Shown: positions 1,850 through 41,370, numbered from the stretch's first letter. The stretch is 64,000 nucleotides of DNA from Nitrosopumilus sp. (GCA_965214775.1 OZ243974.1:96001-160000); one strand, 5' to 3'. Notes: generated by a model not told the origin, from the sequence alone. Numbers and translations are program-made.

Positions 1850-2668
1850 ATGGGATTTTTTGGAAAAAGGAAAAAAGACACACATGCCAAGGAGAAGGGT
1901 GTAAAAAAAGGAGGAGGTGCAACAGAGGAAAAGGAGGGAGAGGAGCAACAGCAATATGCTCAAAAAGAAGAGATGCTAGCATCACTAGAAAAACTGGAAT
2001 TTGAAGTCAAAGAACAAAATGCAGAAAAAGACAGGCTTTTAGAAAGGGTCAGGATTGTAAAAGAAGAGTATGATGCTACCATCAGCAATTTGATGACTGT
2101 AAAAAAAGAGCTAAACCAGAAAAAACTGGAATTGGATGTTGCACAAAGAGAGCACAAATCAATTTTAGAGAAAATCAGGGGACTGGACAGAATCAAAGAT
2201 GAGGAAAAGGAGGCCGAGTTTGTTAAAACAGAAGGCGAACTAGAAAAAATCAAAAGCGAGTTAGAAGAGATGACAAAAGAGTATGACGGGGTAAAAGAAG
2301 AACTTGCCAAAGGCAAGTCAGACCTCCACATGACTAGAAAACAGCAGATTGATGTTGAAAAAGAGCTTGAAGAGGCAAATTCAAGACTGTATAACGCAAA
2401 AGAAGAACTAGACAAAAAAGACGAATTTCAAGATACAAGCGTTCTAACGCCAGGAGAAAAAGAGTTCATTCAAGGCAAAACCGGAAAAGACAGCAATTCT
2501 GCAAGAGTCATCGAGGCTGCAAGCGCAGTCGTAGGTTCGCTAAAATCAAAACTAGGCACAGCTCAAAAGGAGCTTGATACGGTCCAGAATCTTTTAGAAA
2601 AAGAGAGGCAGGCACATGCAGAGACTAGAAGAGAACTAGACAGTCTAAAATCATCATCTGAATCATAA
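1850..2668 (+). CDS. Coiled-coil hypothetical protein
   Basis: 272 aa, E/K-rich heptad pattern, operonic spacing. Confidence 0.8.
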   Translation: MGFFGKRKKDTHAKEKGVKKGGGATEEKEGEEQQQYAQKEEMLASLEKLEFEVKEQNAEKDRLLERVRIVKEEYDATISNLMTVKKELNQKKLELDVAQREHKSILEKIRGLDRIKDEEKEAEFVKTEGELEKIKSELEEMTKEYDGVKEELAKGKSDLHMTRKQQIDVEKELEEANSRLYNAKEELDKKDEFQDTSVLTPGEKEFIQGKTGKDSNSARVIEAASAVVGSLKSKLGTAQKELDTVQNLLEKERQAHAETRRELDSLKSSSES

Positions 2669-3115
2669 ACTCTCAAAATGCTTTTTCCATTTTGCTCTAA
2701 TCTCATCTTCAGACATCCCCAAATCATACAAGGGGGAAGTCACTTCAGATACCCTTGAGACGTCCACCAGAACAATAGAGCCGATTGGGCTCTTGATGCC
2801 TTTGTCTCTGTAAAACGACAAGATTTCGCCGTATTGCTCACCCCGGATAAGGATTCTAGCTTTGCCTGAAAAGAGATAGCCCCTTCTTGACAGAGGATCA
2901 ACAACGTTAATCTCCACGTTTGGATTTGATGCCAAGTTCTTCATGGTATCAGGAGAACGGATATCTGCAAATGCCAACGTCTTCTCATCCCATCCCACAA
3001 CAGTTCCTTTCGGGGACAAATTTGGAAGTCCATCCTCAGTTACCGTGGCAACATAGCCCAGCTTGTGCAAGTCCAGAAAGGACTTGATTTCAAAAGTGAT
3101 CATGGATAGGATCAT
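2663..3115 (-). CDS. Pyridoxamine 5'-phosphate oxidase-like FMN-binding protein
   Basis: YVATV..DG.PNLSPKG and T..NL..NPNVEI motifs. Confidence 0.85.
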   Translation of the reverse strand: MILSMITFEIKSFLDLHKLGYVATVTEDGLPNLSPKGTVVGWDEKTLAFADIRSPDTMKNLASNPNVEINVVDPLSRRGYLFSGKARILIRGEQYGEILSFYRDKGIKSPIGSIVLVDVSRVSEVTSPLYDLGMSEDEIRAKWKKHFESL

Positions 3116-3152
3116 ATCATTGGAGAGATATAATTAATTTTCAACTCTGTCA

Positions 3153-3251
3153 TCATCTCATGACTTCGGCCATAAACTGCGAGAAGAAAAAGAACCCTAT
3201 TCCGCCGCCAATAATTGCCACCCAGGCGGCAATCTGTTTGATTTTAGACAT
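3153..3251 (-). CDS. Small single-TM protein (32 aa)
   Basis: MSKIKQIAAWVAIIGGGIGFFFFSQFMAEVMR. Confidence 0.5.
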   Translation of the reverse strand: MSKIKQIAAWVAIIGGGIGFFFFSQFMAEVMR

Positions 3252-3471
3252 TAAAGGAATTTTTTCGAACCCACTATTGAATCTAATTGGGCGGCCAGTA
3301 TTCCCAAAAGTTCCATGAAAAACGGTTCCACATTTAACACAATTCAGATTATGATGCCTGCAGATCCGCATGTCACCTACTGCACTGCCATGAGTCAGTT
3401 ACATCTGTGAAGACTGGCGGCAGTCCATACAGACAGTTATAATTAAACCAGAGCCAGACAGACAGCAAGTA

Positions 3472-3618
3472 ATGGCAAGCATCAAGGACGTAGGCAAGTT
3501 TTTTGTGTTTATTGTAGGCGGACTAGTGGCAGTCATTGTGGGCTCATTTATGATTCGTGGGACTATGCACATGTGGGACAAGCCAGAAGACAGTAAGGAA
3601 GAAGAAGGCAAGGACTAA
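3472..3618 (+). CDS. Small single-TM protein (48 aa), not in ORF track
   Basis: Manual translation MASIKDVGKFFVFIVGGLVAVIVGSFMIRG...; AT-rich TATA-like box about 30 nt upstream. Confidence 0.6.
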   Translation: MASIKDVGKFFVFIVGGLVAVIVGSFMIRGTMHMWDKPEDSKEEEGKD

Positions 3619-3644
3619 AAACAAGGAGTTCAAATTGCTTGTAA

Positions 3645-3944
3645 GTGCTGCAAGACTCTACAATCAGAAAATCATTGGACCGATACATTTCACGAAGAAT
3701 TCAAGAGATTCCAACTGAGATCAGGCAAACTTTTCCAAACATCAAGCAAATTTGGAAATGTCAAAACGAGGTTGATTTTCTGTATGGATATTATGTTGGG
3801 AAGATAGAAGAAGGCGCACTGCATTACCTTCTCAAGGCAACAAGAGCATCGGCCGGAGGATATGTGGATACTTTTGAAATCAGGGGGATTATTGAAATGC
3901 ATAAATCCGAATTAGCCGATACGATTTCAGATTCGCTCAATTAG
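3645..3944 (+). CDS. Conserved hypothetical protein
   Basis: 99-aa ORF with a DFLYGYYVG motif typical of small thaumarchaeal proteins (from memory). Confidence 0.7.
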   Translation: MLQDSTIRKSLDRYISRRIQEIPTEIRQTFPNIKQIWKCQNEVDFLYGYYVGKIEEGALHYLLKATRASAGGYVDTFEIRGIIEMHKSELADTISDSLN

Positions 3945-3978
3945 TGAGGTAAAAATAGCCCGACAGCTTTGAAAACAC

Positions 3979-4152
3979 ATGGTTGGACCACAGGACGGAG
4001 GGTTTGGATTTGATCAATCTAAAAAATATACCAGTGTTGAAAATTTAGACGAGATCTGTGTCCAGTGTCAGGCAGGACAGCACAGGAGATGTTTGAAGAA
4101 ATCCAAAGTACAAGACAATTGCGAATGCGAGCATTGTATGATTTACGGCTAG
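3979..4152 (+). CDS. Small Cys-rich putative metal-binding protein (57 aa)
   Basis: Manual translation ...ICVQCQAGQHRRC...CECEHC. Confidence 0.6.
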   Translation: MVGPQDGGFGFDQSKKYTSVENLDEICVQCQAGQHRRCLKKSKVQDNCECEHCMIYG

Positions 4153-4200
4153 ATAAAATATTGATCAAGTTTATTTAATATCGCAAAAACAAAATAACAC

Positions 4201-4317
4201 ATGTCAAGGCAGTGCAACTTTGAGTGTACGTATTGTGGTATGGAATTTGGCTCAAAAGTCATGGAGCTTGCATTACACATTGCAAGAGTCCATGATCCTC
4301 CCAGAAACAGAAATTAG
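4201..4317 (+). CDS. Small C2H2 zinc-finger protein (38 aa)
   Basis: FECTYCG...LALHIARVH; TATA-like TTTATTTAATA about 25 nt upstream. Confidence 0.65.
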   Translation: MSRQCNFECTYCGMEFGSKVMELALHIARVHDPPRNRN

Positions 4318-4326
4318 GAGATGCAG

Positions 4327-4409
4327 TATAGCAACGGGCAGAAGTCTTTGAGTCAAAGTAGGTCATATCTACACGTAAAAAACCTCAATTATTTCTGCTC
4401 GTTGCTATA
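4327..4409. mobile_element. MITE family A (IS630/Tc1-mariner-like), copy 1
   Basis: TIR TATAGCAACG(G/A)GCAGAA with TA at both ends; 8 copies in the window. Confidence 0.9.
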
Positions 4410-4419
4410 GGATCAGGAA

Positions 4420-4900
4420 AAACCTGTACAGTCTTGAGGCCCCTGACACGGGGCTGTATCCGGGCGTGGACTGATCCGTGTCGTGCCTTCCCTTGAGGAT
4501 GATATGCCCTGTGTGCTTACCAAAAATGGCGCAAACGCTACCTGGTTTTTCGATCTGTGCTGGCTACGCGAGAGGCCTAGCACAATACGATCCTATTTGA
4601 TTCATGTCAAGGTCTTCGGCTGTGGTGCGGCTCCCTGATAGACTTGGTAGATGCATGGGGTCACGTCCACCCGCCATCCTAGGATTCTACTTGGACACAA
4701 AATTCCAATCCAAAGAAGATCTGGGTTTCATGTCCCGAAGATTGTACAGAACCCCTGGCGCAGCGTGCGGGTGTATTTCTCGCGCGTCTCCTCTGCCTTG
4801 ATCCCCTGGTTGAACAGGGCAAGCGGGGCCGTCTGGCCCACCCTCTCAAAGTCCTCCATCGCAAGCTTCATCTCTGTTTCCATATTCCTGGAACGCATAA
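4420..4900 (-). pseudogene. Degraded tyrosine integrase remnant downstream of tRNA-Val
   Basis: PLALFNQGIKAEETREKYTRTLRQ resembles the N-terminus of thaumarchaeal tRNA-linked integrases (from memory); followed by stops and frameshifts; boundaries approximate. Confidence 0.55.
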
Positions 4901-36293: not shown

Positions 36294-36632
36294 AGTATTC
36301 CCAAAAGTAACCTAAAAATGGCTCCAAATTCAAAACAGAACAAATCCGGTCATCAGCAGATTGACACGCCATCGCCTGTACCGTCACGAGTCTGGTTACA
36401 TCGGGGGAGGCTGATCCCAAGTAGCAGCTAAAGCTCTGGAATCCATTCCTGATTTTAGACAGGAATTCTGTGTGAACTGTCATTTTTGGTGGCAAAATCC
36501 GTGTGCAAGCTTTCAGAGATGTTGTCAAAAATTCCCTGATGGGCAGTCTATTGATGGTCGTGTTCAGCACAAAGGGTAGCCTGCGGCAGACTCCTTTGAC
36601 AATATGGGATACCGCATACCGCAGCTGTCAAT

Positions 36633-36712
36633 AGACTTTATGCGTAATTGGTTCAGATCTAGGATTATTACGAACAAATTCGTCTCATTCAGATCGATTA
36701 CGCATAAAGTCT
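36633..36712. mobile_element. MITE family E copy
   Basis: AGACTTTATGCGTAAT TIR; TSD AAT. Confidence 0.88.
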
Positions 36713-36742
36713 AATGAGTGCGTTCAGCACAAAGGGTAGCCT

Positions 36743-36979: not shown

Positions 36980-37271
36980 AGTAAAACTAGTAGAAAAGAG
37001 TGAAGCTTAATCCATGAACAACAATGTGTCTCAATGTAATTGACAGGCAAATCTTGGAAAAAATGTCCAACAGGTTAGGTTTGCCAACAAGATTGGAATC
37101 ATACCAGCTCCAAAGAAAGCTCAGGATACTGGGAATTGACATGTCTGCTTAAGATATTAGCGAAATTATCAACACCATAAAACCTGTAATTAAAGATACA
37201 GTTCTGTGGTTCTGTGTAAGATTGGTGACCTAGAATGCGGATATTCTCTGAATTGAGATTTTATTTTATGC

Positions 37272-38393
37272 CTAGACAGAATACTTGCTTAGCGAGGCAT
37301 TCTGGATGATGGTCTTCCACTTGTTGATGCCGTCCACGACAATCAAGGATGCCTCCGCAGGCGTCTTTCCCTCCAGGCTTCCGTGCTTTTTGGTGTAATT
37401 GTAGTAGACCCTCATTCCGTCAAGTATGGCCGTATCCATCTTCTTGAGGCCCCTGAACACCTTCTCGCGGTCTCTGATCTCGCCGTTGAGCCTCTCCATC
37501 CTGTTGTTGTTGTCCCGGTCTCTTTTTCCTGCCAGGTGGATATGTCTTACGTGATTCGTACCCTTTCCGAATACCCTCCTTGAGGACTTGGCATATGCCG
37601 GCAGGCCGTCCGTGATGAAGTTTCTGGGGCTTTTTCCGGTATGTGATTTTGTCAGTTGTAATAGACTGTCCGCATTGTGCTGGAACTTGTTGTCTGCCAG
37701 GTCGGAGGCCAGCCAGTAGCGCGTATCGTCATCCATCGAGGCGAATAGATAGCACTGCCTGCCGCTGATTTTCACCCATACCTCGTCGGCCCGGAACCAG
37801 CTGCCGACCCGTGGAACGATTCCGTTGAGGTATGTCGATGTCATCCTGGAATAGTCTCTAACCCAGTTGTATACCGTCTTGTGGCTTACACTGATTCCAA
37901 GCATCTCGTAATGGTTGGAGATGTCACGGACGCTCATCCCCGTATAATACATCTGCAACGCGCCCGTTATGATGGATTCGTCAAACCTCCTGTTTTCGAA
38001 TCCAAAGTTTGCAGTAAACCTTCTCTTACAGTCTTTACACTTGAACATCTGCATTGTAGAGCTTTTGTTCTTCTTTAATCCCTTCCTGACGATGTTGCCA
38101 GAATCGCAGAACTTGCACAGGTTAAGCCTTGACCTTTCAATGATTCTAAACCCGTCGTGTCCGAACACGTTTCTTCTGACATACTCCAGTATTACCTTGA
38201 TGTGCTTGCAGTCCGATTTTCTGCTCCGGTGGTCCGGACACTCACAGACAAGCCCGCTGCCCGTCCTAGATACGGTATAGAACTTGGATGGATCTGACTG
38301 GGATCTGACCCTGAAATCATTCGTACCAATGATCTGGGTGGCGTGACCCGGAGTCTCCATGATCTGTTTTGCACGTCGGTCTCTTGCGTTCAT
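37272..38393 (-). CDS. IS6-family DDE transposase with N-terminal SWIM and zinc-ribbon domains
   Basis: CECPD...CKH (SWIM), CKFC..CKDC, HTH VSHKTVYNWV, RADEVWV, ITDGLPAY and NNNRMERLN; Shine-Dalgarno GAGGAGG. Confidence 0.93.
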   Translation of the reverse strand: MNARDRRAKQIMETPGHATQIIGTNDFRVRSQSDPSKFYTVSRTGSGLVCECPDHRSRKSDCKHIKVILEYVRRNVFGHDGFRIIERSRLNLCKFCDSGNIVRKGLKKNKSSTMQMFKCKDCKRRFTANFGFENRRFDESIITGALQMYYTGMSVRDISNHYEMLGISVSHKTVYNWVRDYSRMTSTYLNGIVPRVGSWFRADEVWVKISGRQCYLFASMDDDTRYWLASDLADNKFQHNADSLLQLTKSHTGKSPRNFITDGLPAYAKSSRRVFGKGTNHVRHIHLAGKRDRDNNNRMERLNGEIRDREKVFRGLKKMDTAILDGMRVYYNYTKKHGSLEGKTPAEASLIVVDGINKWKTIIQNASLSKYSV

Positions 38394-38434
38394 TCACATC
38401 CCTCCTCGAAAACTAATATAGAACAAAAAAGATG

Positions 38435-38519
38435 CGGTGGGTGTGGGATTCGAACCCACGAAGGCTTTCCACCTTGCAGGTCATAAGCCTGCCACTCTAA
38501 CCGACTAAGTGAACCCACC
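38435..38519 (-). tRNA. Atypical class II tRNA with a UAU anticodon and G73
   Basis: GGTGGGT/ACCCACC acceptor, D-arm ACTT/GAGT, GCAGG-CTTATGA-CCTGC, variable arm AAGGT-GGAAA-GCCTT, GTGGG-TTCGAAT-CCCAC. Confidence 0.9.
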
Positions 38520-38530
38520 ATGCATTATAT

Positions 38531-38572
38531 TATACGTACGTTTATTTATACCTAGCTCTTATACGTACGTAT
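38531..38572. promoter_or_regulatory. Divergent promoter region with two palindromic TACGTACG operators
   Basis: TATACGTACGTT (38531-38542) and the perfect palindrome ATACGTACGTAT (38561-38572) flank minus-strand TATAAATA (38543-38550). Confidence 0.65.
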
Positions 38573-38589
38573 GGTTTTTATACATCTTC

Positions 38590-38766
38590 ATGGTATACGA
38601 CATATTGACGCGATGGAAAAAGAACGAAACCGAGTTTTCCGTAAAACTCTCGTTTGATGGAAGAAACAGCATGTCATGCAGGATACCGAAACCCATTCTG
38701 GAAATGCTCGGTGAACCAGAGTCCATCACGTTCCGAATCAAAAACAACAGGATTGTGGTGGATTGA
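38590..38766 (+). CDS. AbrB/MazE/SpoVT-like small DNA-binding protein
   Basis: 58 aa; VKL......CRIPKPILEMLG....ITFRIKNNRIVV swapped-hairpin pattern. Confidence 0.7.
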   Translation: MVYDILTRWKKNETEFSVKLSFDGRNSMSCRIPKPILEMLGEPESITFRIKNNRIVVD

Positions 38767-38816
38767 TATGAGCGCCGAAACCACTAACCCACCCCCCGGA
38801 TGGAAAAACCGAATCA

Positions 38817-39398
38817 TCATGCCCTGGTCCATTCTATATGTCCGTTTACACCATGTTTGTCATAGGTTTTCAAAATATCGTCACAGAACTTGGCCAATGC
38901 GTAATCGTTGACCTTTTTTGATCTGGCCAGTAGGTTAACAAACAATTTTTTTGCGGTTTCCGTCTGGTTGTAGTTTTTCTTTTTGAAGTTGTGTGCCGCG
39001 CACAATACCTGCCCGTTTTCCACCGTTGACTCCCCACCCTTGTCTCTGGGTTTTATGTGATCGATATGCAGCTTTACACCGTCTCTTTCGCCCTTGCCAC
39101 AAACAACGCATTTGTGTTGGTCTCGTTCCAAGATTTCTGCCTTCTGTTTTGACGTGAAATTTTGCAATTTTATTGCGTCCTGTGGGTTGTAGCGGTAAAC
39201 TCCGGTGTTTACCTTGGTCAGAACACCTTCCTGGTGCAGGCTTCTTATCTGTCTATCCGGATCACGGAATACCCTGCCTGTACGCTCGTTATATTCTGAG
39301 ACTGCCCAGTCCACAATCTCCGGATGTTTTATGCTGCGATTCGGGTTGTTCCTGTAATACTCCAGGATTACGTCACGCTGGGTAACCGTGTCTGACAC
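38817..39398 (-). CDS. HNH endonuclease (putative type II restriction enzyme)
   Basis: ILERDQHKCVVCG...HIDHIKP..KGG....NGQVLC..HN; overlaps the MTase 3' end. Confidence 0.9.
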   Translation of the reverse strand: MSDTVTQRDVILEYYRNNPNRSIKHPEIVDWAVSEYNERTGRVFRDPDRQIRSLHQEGVLTKVNTGVYRYNPQDAIKLQNFTSKQKAEILERDQHKCVVCGKGERDGVKLHIDHIKPRDKGGESTVENGQVLCAAHNFKKKNYNQTETAKKLFVNLLARSKKVNDYALAKFCDDILKTYDKHGVNGHIEWTRA

Positions 39399-40184
39399 AC
39401 CTCCTTTTCTATTCGCTTTTCTGCAAGGCTGTAATACTCGTCAACTAGTTCTATCCCCACCGACCTGCGGCCGTTTTTCATGGAGGCAACTATTGTCGTG
39501 CCGGAACCGGCAAACGGGTCAAGTATGACGTCATCAACATATGAAAACAGCTTGATGCATCTTTCTGGCAGTTCCTCCGGAAACGGCGCCGGATGCCCGT
39601 TCTTTTTTGCACCTGGAAACGTCCACATGCCGTTTGTCCATTCGATGAACTCGTTCCTTTCGATTGTACTTATTCCTCTGCGGTCACGTTTCCACTCGTC
39701 CTTGTAAAGTACGATTATGGCCTCAACAGGTGCTATCACATGCGGTGCAGAAGCCGACAGCCACGATCCCCATGCCGTCCTCCTTGATATGTTGCCCTCG
39801 TTCCAGACTATTGTTGCATGGTATTTCCATCCTGCATCAAGAGCTATCTTTGTCAGGTCGGCACATGTGGGCCTCTTTCCCTGCTTGTTCTTGTCCAGAC
39901 CAATGTTAAGACAGAATCTGCCCGTTGAACGTGTCCAATGAAGTACATTACTAATCCATTTTTCTGAGAATTTCAGGTATCTCTCATAGGATATGCTGTC
40001 ATTGCACCCCCCCCCCACCTTCATAATCAAGGCCTACGTTGTAGGGAGGTGATGTCACGGTAAGATCTACTGAATTGTTTCGAATTGTCGATTTTTTGGT
40101 CGTATCCCCTCTGACTAGCCTGTATTCAGGTTTCTCCACAAAACCCTTTTTGGTTTGTGTTTTTTTAATCCTTGGCTTTGTCAA
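39368..40184 (-). pseudogene. Beta-class amino (m6A/m4C) DNA methyltransferase frameshifted in a G10 tract
   Basis: TSPPYN in ORF 39999-40184; HPAPFP and DPFAGSGTT in ORF 39368-40030; removing one G at 40007-40016 fuses the frames. Confidence 0.9.
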
Positions 40185-40237
40185 TTTGATCTCACCCTTT
40201 CCTTCTGACTGTAGTTATCCAATCACTGCCTACCTTA

Positions 40238-40320
40238 TATAGCAACGGGCATAAGTCTTTGAGTCAAAGTAGGTCATAACTACGCGTAAAAAACCTCAAT
40301 TATTTCTGCTCGTTGCTATA
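40238..40320. mobile_element. MITE family A, copy 5 (inside the IS6 element)
   Basis: Family A sequence. Confidence 0.9.
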
Positions 40321-40610
40321 CAACTCCCATTCCACATAGTTGCTTTTCCTGATCGCATCCGTGACCCTCCTTGCAGAGAACGCCTCACTAAGTAAAAATT
40401 TCGTCTAGTCGTAAAAATCGAATCTGAAGAAGATCCACATTTCAGGTCTCGAAGATTACATAGAATCTAGAATACTCCTGCCTTATCAAGCCGATCTCGG
40501 AAGCGTTCACATTCTAGGTCACCAATCTTACACAGAACCAGTTCTGTTTATCAGAGGGAGATACAATTTGAGAAGACATATCAAAACATTAAGAGTACAT
40601 GAGTGTCATG

Positions 40611-40693
40611 TATAGCAACGTTCACAAATAATTGAGGTCTTTTACGGGCAATCTGACCATGTTTTGACTCAAAGACTTCTGCTCGTTGCTATA
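40611..40693. mobile_element. MITE family A, copy 6 (inverted, diverged)
   Basis: TATAGCAACG ends with the interior partly diverged. Confidence 0.82.
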
Positions 40694-40947
40694 TGAAATC
40701 AGGCCACAGAGTGGAAGTGCCGATCCATCGTTTTATCATTCAATATGAATTGGGAGGTGGCTGGTTCAAATTTAGTGAACAGTTATTGCGAGAGATTTTC
40801 CATGAATTTTTGCCAGATACAAAAGTGAAGTGTAAGACAACGAAAACTACAGTTATTGCGTCAATTTCACCAGGAGAAAGATCTAGCGAGCATAACGGTT
40901 ACCGGAAGAATAAAGCTTTTAAAATATCCGTCAATACGATAATCAAC

Positions 40948-41370
40948 ATGAAACAAAAGACTGCATCAAGAAGCATCAAGATTCTAGTAGCAAAACTAGG
41001 ACTGGACGGACATGACAGGGGCGCCCTTGTCCTATGCAGGGCATTCAGAGATGCCGGAATGGAGGTAATCTATTCGGGATTGTTTGCCACTCCGGAAAGA
41101 GTTGCGCAGATTGCAGAAGACGAAGATGTGGATGCAATTGCAATGAGCTTGCTTAATGGCGCGCATGGAACGCTATTTCCAAGAGTCGTAAAGGCACTAA
41201 AAAAGAAAGGAATCAGGGACGTTCTCGTAGTTGGGGGAGGAGTGATTCCAGAGGCAGATCACAAGGCACTAATCAAGTCAGGAGTAGGCCACGTGTTTGG
41301 TCCAGGCACGCCACTGCCAACAATCATTGATCACATCAACACGGGCGTTGTAAAATTAAGAAAAATATAA
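40948..41370 (+). CDS. Methylmalonyl-CoA mutase small (cobalamin-binding) subunit
   Basis: KLGLDGHDRGA, RDAGMEVIY and VVGGGVIP motifs. Confidence 0.93.
   Translation: MKQKTASRSIKILVAKLGLDGHDRGALVLCRAFRDAGMEVIYSGLFATPERVAQIAEDEDVDAIAMSLLNGAHGTLFPRVVKALKKKGIRDVLVVGGGVIPEADHKALIKSGVGHVFGPGTPLPTIIDHINTGVVKLRKI

Follow-up and report, generated by a model that had tools for sequence, protein, structure and literature searches.

The genome of Nitrosopumilus sp. carries, within a stretch of 64,000 nucleotides (GCA_965214775.1 OZ243974.1:96001-160000; the window, whose positions are used throughout), a segment of 3,332 bp at 37208-40539 that ends in inverted repeats and in which a transposase gene accounts for only 1,122 bp. 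The question raised by this locus is what kind of element would enclose a transposase together with a tRNA gene, a small gene, an HNH nuclease gene, and a DNA methyltransferase gene. An initial annotation, made from the sequence alone, described the segment as a recently inserted single-transposase "transporter IS" with a transposase-tRNA-AbrB core and a variable slot for defence cargo. Our analysis makes it very probable that the segment, referred to as E1, is an autonomous transporter insertion sequence (IS) and belongs to an IS6-like clade found widely across this archaeal order. The genome of the window (G000) is a single contig of 2,833,656 bp, and positions outside the window are given with the genome label.

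Ends of the element and its transposase

The ends of E1 read GGTTCTGTGTAAGATTGGTGACCTAGAATG on the transposase side and its reverse complement on the distal side, forming perfect 30-bp terminal inverted repeats (TIRs), and a repeat search returned 100% complementary outer repeats of 31 nt (37207-37237 and 40510-40540). The octamer AGTTCTGT stands on both sides of the element as an 8-bp target site duplication (TSD), and both the repeats and the duplication reported in the initial annotation were thereby read directly (Table 1). With up to three mismatches allowed, the 30-mer end was found in seven places of the genome, six of them exact and one with a single mismatch, while the reversed control was found in none, so the ends are not a product of chance. 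The GC content of E1 is about 0.44-0.53, compared to 0.35-0.42 in the immediate surroundings. The TSD of E1 equals the IS tip GGTTCTGT at seven of eight positions, which is true of none of the other 14 TSDs identified in this study, and this likeness could reflect either chance or insertion beside an end-like sequence.

The transposase matched Pfam PF13610 (DDE_Tnp_IS240) at residues 200-335 with an E value of 2.3e-14 and 54.2 bits (cut-off 27). The NCBIfam IS6 profile NF033587 was covered over its full length (1-201 of 202) by residues 132-334, and the next-best NCBIfam family was IS1 with 61.4 bits. The domain order is a zinc-binding extension, an HTH (helix-turn-helix), and an IS240-type DDE catalytic domain. 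The extension contains a SWIM-like CxC..CxH zinc finger (C50, C52, C62, and H64) and a four-cysteine zinc ribbon (C93, C96, C119, and C122), both invariant over 15 homologues, with IS1/IS1595/IS256-type zinc-binding models matching residues 93-128. The likely DDE residues are D203, D262, and E300, candidates that are kept in 15 homologues. As every residue invariant over the 15 homologues is retained, the transposase of E1 is judged to be intact. Database homologues amounted to 1,936 at E<=1e-10, some of them labelled "IS6 family transposase" by NCBI, including a 67% identical protein named "IS6 family transposase [Nitrosopumilus ureiphilus]", and when 201 genomes of the order were sampled, 84 of them, counting G000, had matches at E<=1e-30.

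Both ends of E1 open with GG and carry the cTGTt motif (GGTTCTGTG...), as in the IS6 family, and the 8-bp TSD typical of that family was found for E1 and for 14 of the 18 other delimited elements. The compactness of IS6 members (about 0.7-0.9 kb, up to 1.8 kb) was not found, since E1 measures 3,332 bp and its relatives 1,983-6,444 bp. The IS6-type transposase of the initial annotation was thus recovered by Pfam and by the full-length IS6 profile, and E1 is best called IS6-like, having the end and target system of IS6 but lacking its compactness and narrowly missing one curated cut-off.

Sister copies and spread among relatives

Four complete elements, E1 to E4, were identified in G000, each having perfect TIRs and an 8-bp TSD not shared with the others (Table 2), in addition to a solo IS end at G000 1231471 that retains 23 codons of the transposase 3' end. 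Homology of E1 with E2 is limited to the distal 119 nt and to the stretch that begins with the transposase ATG and runs up to the proximal end (95.9%), and E1 and E4 have only the transposase region and the TIRs in common. E1 and E3 have the small gene, the tRNA, and the transposase in common (84.8% over 1.5 kb). Unlike DNA between identical ends, with a separate 8-bp TSD for each copy, is the signature of a transporter IS, and E1 carries its passengers and a single transposase within one TIR pair, apparently as one mobile unit.

The five closest loci were examined over 20 kb and more distant ones as 4-kb loci, and the survey counts refer to this sample of genomes and loci with limited flanks. 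In all of the closest loci, the distal TIR lay 1.7-3.4 kb upstream of the transposase start. Among the distant loci (41-46% transposase identity), both ends were found in eight, which spanned 1,983-3,538 bp and had a perfect 8-bp TSD in seven cases and none in one, while the TIR candidates of loci L029 and L044 were rejected as chance (16/40 identities, no TSD). In total, 19 elements in 15 genomes were delimited, 15 of them with a perfect 8-bp TSD. The outer TSDs of E1 and 14 relatives bear out the proposal that a single-transposase unit in one TIR pair is moved whole. A compact IS, with a TIR pair tight around the transposase, was present in none of the 29 relatives' loci; the second TIR beside the transposase start, which the initial annotation had itself named as evidence against its reading, was likewise found in none. 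One of the 29 loci (L036) is from an unpublished genome (G108), and no claim hangs on it alone.

Flanks identical beyond 8 bp, a sign of segmental duplication, occurred only for the two copies in genome G079. These copies (L045 and L046, contig 1, 70138-71238 and 84287-85387) are identical elements, inverted and 13 kb apart, an arrangement that resembles either a large duplication in inverted orientation or two transporter IS forming a composite.

Scanning species-representative genomes with 22 nt of the tRNA returned a single record, the element L054 in a Nitrosopumilaceae metagenome-assembled genome (G201). The transposase and tRNA of L054 are 98-99.8% identical to those of E1, while its cargo differs and its small gene belongs to a different subfamily. 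Core genes flanking E1 are only 72-79% identical between G000 and G201, with no synteny there. The excess of element identity over core gene identity argues that an E1-type element recently crossed a species border, the comparison further suggests that cargo was swapped at the tRNA edge, and on this evidence the element family is spreading between species. In L054, the transposase gene is split at 2991-4710 by a 1.7-kb insertion coding for a 448-aa DDE_Tnp_4-like transposase, and related open reading frames (ORFs) of 335-336 aa adjoin two odd tRNAs in G000.

Restriction-modification genes as cargo

Restriction-modification (R-M) genes or fragments of them were detected with PADLOC and Pfam in 10 of the 11 closer elements (Table 2). 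Cargo differs between elements and is mostly R-M, which agrees with the variable defence slot proposed initially, and the different defence genes of the sister copies suggest that the transposon family ferries such genes between archaea. In the distant group, none of the 10 passenger ORFs scanned with Pfam was assigned to R-M; one gave a weak match to an aspartyl protease and another a weak match to a zinc ribbon.

In E1, the HNH ORF matched PF01844 with an E value of 3.2e-9 and overlaps the methyltransferase (MTase) stop by 31 nt. The MTase matched PF01555 (N6_N4_Mtase, E 4.3e-35) as well as the PADLOC model given in Table 2, with the motif SPPY in its N-terminal piece and FAGSGTT in its C-terminal piece. 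Its reading frame is lost in a run of ten C (coding-strand G10); a run of 9 or 12 would preserve it. This run lies inside contigs of the sequencing runs X2 and X5 from two studies with 0 differences, so its length is no error peculiar to this assembly. Of the R-M pair described initially, both genes are therefore present, while the MTase is frameshifted and the pair is not intact. In E2 (locus L051, 2186-2470), a tandem array with a 21-bp unit (VSGVWCL in one frame) lies between the MTase gene and the GmrSD-like gene.

Small protein and candidate operators

Homologues of the small gene were found beside the transposase in loci of seven other genomes (one of them G108), and in 30 of 201 genomes at E<=1e-8. 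An AlphaFold2 monomer model of the 58-aa protein shows a strand, a helix, and two further strands (beta-alpha-beta-beta) with a predicted local distance difference test (pLDDT) score of 69.5. The two-copy model scored 0.60, compared to 0.02 for the best of three controls. Among proteins of solved structure, 20 of 30 that are pairs of one chain attained the mark of 0.60, as did 1 of 23 that are single chains. The dimer is interleaved, strand 45-49 of one chain lying on strand 15-20 of its partner, and the model runs agree in at least 96% of contacts (pLDDT 71). The modelling supports an intertwined homodimer.

The 70-nt region between the small gene and the tRNA contains two ACGTACGT palindromes at 38534-38541 and 38561-38572, the latter as ATACGTACGTAT. 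Both are kept in E3, and other small-gene subfamilies have other inverted repeats there (L054 and L104). The palindromes are candidate operators. The most economical reading is that the small protein is most likely a dimeric repressor of both divergent promoters. At the place of the small gene, loci L024 and L034 have a different small ORF with an AbrB/SpoVT-looking motif, and three loci have another, conserved protein of about 70 aa (L047:1609-1818, L049:18108-18320, and L050:1582-1797), in which the sequence GK.YLYY...YCGL precedes a coiled coil.

A family of mobile class-II tRNAs

ARAGORN assigned the tRNA of E1 the anticodon UAU in the anticodon loop CUUAUGA, and Rfam RF00005 matched with 59 bits (gathering score 29) and a 14-nt insertion at the variable region. 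The tRNA has a 16-nt variable arm, G1-C72, G2-C71, G30-C40, and G73, and CCA is not encoded. A TATA-like box lies about 30 nt upstream of the gene. Behind the gene on the minus strand, the spacer to the transposase contains a six-T run, which is terminator-like, and TATATTAG about 30 nt ahead of the transposase ATG, which is promoter-like; the tRNA would thus have promoter-like and terminator-like signals of its own. In L054, the pair G5:C68 is replaced by A5:U68, a compensatory change, and the tRNA changes among E1, E3, and L054 are compensatory or pair-restoring, a pattern which indicates that the tRNA is under structural selection and is not junk.

The E1-type tRNA was present in three elements only, E1, E3, and L054. 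The sister elements E2 and E4 in G000 lack it, and ARAGORN detected no tRNA in any of the 29 relatives' loci (28/28 when the unpublished G108 locus is left out). Among 401 genomes of the order, tRNA(UAU) occurred only in G000, apart from one unrelated match with three mismatches and the anticodon GTT, and scans for it gave 0 and 0 hits in two sets of metagenome contigs and 0 in viral contigs. Since the tRNA-less sister copies have TSDs, the tRNA is dispensable for transposition. By its distribution, it is a lineage-specific add-on and no family core. Of the proposed transposase-tRNA-AbrB core, the small gene thus recurs widely, whereas the tRNA does not belong to it and the AbrB fold was not confirmed.

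Similar tRNAs accompany the small gene elsewhere. In G000, a divergent class-II tRNA was found 70-95 nt away from 3/3 small-gene copies (UAU, UAU, and CAG), in G201 from 3/4 copies (UAU, GAA, and one with a 6-nt loop), and in other genomes from 1/28 small-gene loci (L091, GAG). These seven tRNAs in three genomes fold into one cloverleaf with a long variable arm and 27 pairs, 15 of which show compensatory changes. G1-C72, G2-C71, and G73 occurred in 7/7 and G30-C40 in 5/7 of the aligned tRNAs.

According to Giege and Eriani 2023 (PMC9976931), G73 and G30-C40 are strong determinants for the archaeal and bacterial seryl-tRNA synthetase (SerRS), G1-C72 and G2-C71 are serine identity marks in bacteria, and serine identity disregards the anticodon. 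In the same source, G73 is an antideterminant for the leucyl-tRNA synthetase (LeuRS) of H. volcanii, archaeal leucine identity needs A73, and bacterial isoleucine identity uses A73, with the archaeal isoleucine set left blank in its Table 1. G73 combined with a long variable arm is unlike any known tRNA-Ile. By the SerRS and LeuRS identity rules, the mobile tRNAs look serine-type in body and Ile-, Leu-, or Phe-type by anticodon.

A translationally active mis-decoding tRNA with a serine-type body and Ile, Leu, or Phe anticodons, kept under repressor control, is a rather improbable reading, and most of the probability falls to other options, among them a non-translational role. If SerRS charges these tRNAs, de-repression would place serine at abundant hydrophobic codons. 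On a transposon whose other passengers are R-M genes, such a tRNA, if real, could be an abortive-infection or addiction device, or a switchable recoding tool, and would represent a defence or selfish module of a kind not described so far.

Further tRNA-like sequences were observed in G000. At L104 (G000 2470001-2476000), the tRNA(CAG) lies at 2569-2655(+) and the small gene at about 2299-2478(-), with no IS6-like transposase; a tyrosine-recombinase-like ORF of 480 aa follows this pair and a DDE_Tnp_4-like transposase precedes it. This locus may be an integrase element seated in tRNA(CAG). No delimiting TIRs were found for L104 or for L065, the element with tRNA(GAA). A 99-nt "Leu(CAG)" tRNA-like gene lies beside IS6-like transposase remnants (G000 1015320-1015418), a 96-nt "Leu(UAG)" tRNA-like gene at G000 1744619-1744714, and a 27-nt stretch that repeats the E1 tRNA's 3' end (96%) at G000 2239000-2239026. 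In L048, G000 864355, and 405174, a short upstream ORF (MNQ...), ending in ATGA over the transposase start, was considered as a feature in the tRNA's place. It was dropped as a family feature because a check of 32 loci showed that ATGA is merely a consequence of Met-Asn starts (21/32) and that long upstream ORFs are rare. A C/D-box small RNA reading of the same leader was rejected for unfit box spacings.

Proposed mechanism and alternative explanations

Under the transporter IS explanation, the single zinc-finger DDE transposase would recognize both 30-bp GGTTCTGT... ends, and everything between them would be inserted as one unit with an 8-bp target duplication, as the anatomy and the copies suggest. 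The chemistry could be either a replicative cointegrate as in IS26 or a simple insertion. The stretch from the distal end to the transposase would serve as a cargo slot, which in the closer relatives nearly always holds R-M genes and in E1 a decaying type II-like pair of an HNH nuclease and a beta-class methyltransferase. The divergent two-gene module adjoining the transposase consists of the small repressor-like gene and the structurally intact class-II tRNA(UAU). R-M cargo may be kept by benefiting or addicting the host and then decay, as the frameshift in E1 and the fragments in E3 and E4 suggest. Cargo may be exchanged by recombination at module borders, judging from the homology break points, or by capture between a full copy and a solo end, and the nested end in E1 could be the fossil of such a capture event.

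This nested end also bears on the origin of the layout. The distal end of E1 is compound, with the outer 30-bp TIR followed after 42 nt by a decayed proximal end of a sibling IS, which is 94% identical over 89 nt to the last 91 nt of the copy at G000 1910629, still shows a degenerate TIR, and is partly common to E2 within its 119-nt distal homology. Such a remnant would be expected if E1 were a decayed composite, in which two inverted IS copies surrounded host or foreign DNA, one of them eroded to its TIR, and the slot is an accident of history; solo ends such as that at G000 1231471 could have been surrogate partners. However, the remnant lies inside the functional outer TIR and is of a different TIR variant, and is thus not an end in present use, and in the other 10 closer elements the distal and proximal ends are alike over 23-49 nt only, the extent of the TIR. 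The long layout was present in 19/19 delimited elements, down to 41% transposase identity, which argues for a stable family layout. A composite origin is on balance unlikely, and it concerns the origin only and predicts the same present-day behaviour. Still less can be said for the tRNA being the point of the element, as a codon-supplementing tRNA-Ile for AUA-rich foreign genes or as an integrase attachment site, which we consider very unlikely. AUA is above the host level of 19.7 per 1000 codons in the cargo (50 in the MTase and 26 in the HNH gene), the sister tRNA(CAG) at L104 has the tyrosine-recombinase-like ORF about 660 nt downstream, and tRNA genes are reported as the target of 39 of 68 integrated elements in Thaumarchaeota (Krupovic et al. 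2019, PMC6563490). Yet the host itself makes frequent use of AUA (29% of Ile codons) and the transposase uses it less (8 per 1000), which leaves codon supply a weak candidate, and the three CAU tRNAs of the genome would be enough for a native AUA decoder. G73 and the long variable arm are not isoleucine features, and no integrase or att-like repeat was found in E1, E3, or L054.

An assembly artefact or a chance pairing of repeats, with the interval stitched from repeated IS ends, has next to no probability, even though short-read contigs stop at TIRs and at miniature inverted-repeat transposable elements (MITEs) and none covers the whole interval. The genome is one 2.83-Mb contig, short-read contigs of two studies agree with it at every position over 38742-40263 and 38626-40263, and a third study differs at five positions in the cargo interior. 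Equal 8-bp flanks at both outer ends are not expected from misassembly, and the independent genome G201 has the same transposase-tRNA block within its own TIR/TSD pair.

A number of results weigh against the transporter IS explanation or parts of it. Mobility as a unit is deduced from anatomy and copies, and no transposition event was directly observed. A search for RNA evidence listed no data set containing the element. No contig joins 37207 to 40548, the listed joints all lying between MITE copies, and the empty site, a check suggested in the initial annotation, was found neither among contigs nor in G201, the only other holder of an E1-type element, which is not syntenic there. Contigs that run from the left flank to the TIR end reach 29 nt into E1, under the 31-nt bridging rule, and the right junction is spanned by no listed contig. 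The TSD is missing in 4 of the 19 delimited elements (L045, L046, L049, and L034). The transposase scored 123.2 bits against the NF033587 cut-off of 125, a marginal miss, and Harmer and Hall 2019 (PMC6807381) hold that archaeal "IS6" elements, for which experimental data are lacking, may not belong to the family. For this reason the name "IS6-like" was chosen, and a cointegrate mechanism is an extrapolation here.

Concerning the cargo, the HNH protein matched the PADLOC REase_II models only weakly (2.6e-6 and 8.7e-6), which makes its restriction link weak, the Mrr_cat-like fragment of E3 is below the Pfam cut-offs, and the frameshift predicts that the R-M pair of E1 cannot work as encoded. The evidence for a regulator role of the small protein comprises the dimer model and the palindromes only. 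Pfam matched 0/8 of its members at E<=1, NCBIfam and PADLOC gave no match, a PDB profile search returned nothing below E 0.4, and Foldseek returned nothing significant for the model, with a truncated EcMazE at rank 8 (E 4.8); the AbrB label of the initial annotation was accordingly left without a match in any of these searches.

Features of the locus and its surroundings

The MITE-like repeat within E1 is a host repeat of about 83 bp (TATAGCAACG...CGTTGCTATA) with 79 places in the genome, one of them just outside E1 at 40609-40694. E1 has therefore been resident long enough to be struck by a host repeat, and the description "recently inserted" applies in a relative sense only. Further copies were observed in the window near 4350, 11300, 18350, 23300, 51450, and 56150, and at many places in G201 with 94-99% identity. 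A second multi-copy repeat occurs at 36629-36716. E1 sits in a non-coding stretch upstream of a gene for a B12-binding-domain protein (40693-41370; PF02310, E 2.7e-25).

G000 contains 42 G or C homopolymers of 9-12 nt, such as that at 40007-40016. C runs occur before about 1.15 Mb and after about 2.63 Mb and G runs at 1.156-2.53 Mb, with one exception, an asymmetry that is replication-strand-like. Several G runs adjoin a short element that begins with TTGTCGCCTAATTCCAC; the 3' end of the E4 transposase contains an inserted copy of this element.

Table 1. Features of E1 and its borders, in window coordinates
Feature	Position	Strand	Evidence
Left TSD copy AGTTCTGT	37200..37207		identical to 40540-40547
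Proximal TIR GGTTCTGTGTAAGATTGGTGACCTAGAATG, transposase 3' side	37208..37237	+	100% complementary to 40510-40539
Transposase, 373 aa	37272..38393	-	Pfam PF13610
Spacer between tRNA and transposase	38394..38433	-	sequence read; kept in E3 and L054
Class-II tRNA gene, anticodon UAU	38434..38519	-	ARAGORN, Rfam
Divergent promoter region with two ACGTACGT palindromes (candidate operators) and TATA-like boxes	38520..38589		sequence read
Small protein gene, 58 aa	38590..38766	+	homologues beside transposase in other loci
HNH endonuclease, 193 aa, candidate restriction enzyme	38817..39398	-	PF01844
Beta-class N4/N6 DNA methyltransferase in two frames	39368..40184	-	PF01555; pieces 39368-40030 and 39999-40184
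C10 homopolymer, MTase frame break	40007..40016		frames read
Host MITE-like palindromic repeat	40237..40322		repeat search; genome copies
Nested decayed proximal end of sibling IS	40377..40465	-	94% over 89 nt to G000 1910629 type
Distal TIR	40510..40539	-	complementary to proximal TIR
Right TSD copy AGTTCTGT	40540..40547		identical to left copy

Table 2. Closer elements with their extent, target site duplication, and cargo
Element	Location and size	TSD and remarks	Cargo
E1	window 37208-40539, 3,332 bp	AGTTCTGT	MTase_II (3e-74) and HNH
E2	G000 1032248-1038595, 6,348 bp	AAGAAAAA	GmrSD_N-HNH type II enzyme, REase_II (2.6e-126); EcoRI-type MTase (9.8e-101); GmrSD-type enzyme
E3	G000 591908-598351, 6,444 bp	TGGGTTGC; own perfect 30-bp TIR variant; transposase 83% identical	weak Mrr_cat-like fragment; secreted beta-propeller/HYR protein
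E4	G000 1293463-1295828, 2,366 bp	CTCTCTGA; transposase frameshifted, with small insertion	BglII-family fragment (3.7e-24)
G079, two copies	3,832 and 3,856 bp	none; same flanks	type I MTase/specificity
G184	4,573 bp	CTAAAACA	type IIG (1.4e-164) and specificity subunit
G187	3,173 bp	GAAGACCA	REase_II (2.3e-43) and MTase_II (2e-80)
G027	4,801 bp; 2,997 bp	none; CAGGATTC	MTase_I and specificity
L054 (G201)	5,079 bp	GCCCGTCC	MTase_II and REase_II (7.2e-11), a different type II R-M pair
L050			secreted and membrane protein, no R-M

Comparison with known systems

E1 resembles the IS6/IS26 family (IS26, IS257, and IS6100, with archaeal clades in Halobacteria, Thermococcales, Methanococcales, and Sulfolobales; Varani et al. 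2021, PMC7986276) in its IS240-type DDE domain, its GG ends with cTGTt, and its 8-bp TSD. The members described so far measure for the most part 700-890 bp, consist almost entirely of the transposase gene, have TIRs of 15-20 bp, and carry cargo between two direct copies, whereas elements of the E1 clade are single copies with 2.0-5 kb of passenger DNA inside one TIR pair, which in E1 measures 30 bp and encloses a 373-aa transposase. The archaeal clades in that survey are from Euryarchaeota and Sulfolobales, and the part of it used here contains no mention of a thaumarchaeal member. It names ISDsp3 of Dehalococcoides as the sole IS6 member with a passenger gene, a transporter IS that is like E1 in having its passenger in a single IS with one transposase. 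ISDsp3 is reported as a single copy with one hypothetical gene, while passengers were found in 19/19 elements of the E1 clade, along with R-M cargo that is exchangeable, a small gene resembling a regulator, and a tRNA in three of the elements.

The long zinc-finger IS6 transposases are clostridial (Varani et al. 2021). Those of clades h/i and VII/VIII (PMC7986276, PMC6807381) have an N-terminal zinc extension before the HTH-DDE part as in E1, a likeness drawn from descriptions of the extensions, and are of similar length (340-350 aa, compared to 373 aa), but they are bacterial and belong to plain IS of 1.2-1.8 kb. R-M genes within one TIR pair were described by Furuta, Abe and Kobayashi 2010 (PMC2853133) for an N. 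gonorrhoeae unit with a 26-bp TIR, an 8-bp TSD, a type IIG gene, an S subunit, and a transposase-like gene, and for an X. oryzae R-M unit with a 65-bp TIR. These units are like E1 in enclosing R-M in one TIR pair, in the 8-bp TSD, and, in one case, in the transposase-like gene inside. They differ from it as bacterial single cases with an apparently inactive transposase-like gene, no family context, and no tRNA/regulator module, and that paper reports that its filters were passed by no archaeal case. Tn7-like transposons (Benler et al. 2021, PMC8649781) likewise have variable cargo enriched in defence systems, but use multi-protein machinery and are much larger, while E1 has a single DDE transposase.

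Thaumarchaeal IS are treated as elements of one or two genes in Krupovic et al. 2019 (PMC6563490), whose Tables S1 and S2, which list IS families per thaumarchaeal genome and lay outside the search, may already contain these copies as IS. In the literature searched, to which ISfinder and supplements did not belong, no IS6-like transporter elements were found for this archaeal group, in agreement with the initial view that the layout is undescribed in archaea, and no tRNAs were found described inside such elements. The picture of IS6 as compact, cargo-free elements that move genes only as two-copy structures would be revised by a whole archaeal clade of single-copy cargo carriers. The clade would provide a concrete vehicle for R-M genes between species of an ecologically important archaeal order, and a small, delimitable archaeal transposon with 30-bp ends and one protein is a possible genetic tool in a tool-poor group.

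R-M genes inside a unit with TIRs and an 8-bp TSD thus have a bacterial precedent, and the tRNA family is the part that could be categorically new. Its closest counterparts are the "mistranslating" tRNA-Ser and tRNA-Leu anticodon variants, engineered or natural, of yeast and human cells, which are like the E1 tRNAs in combining a serine-marked class-II body with foreign anticodons. Those variants are mutants of host tRNA genes, whereas the seven tRNAs described here are carried on mobile DNA beside a small regulator-like gene, and with mobile class-II tRNAs adjoining a candidate repressor, it becomes directly testable whether archaea have natural, regulated mistranslation.

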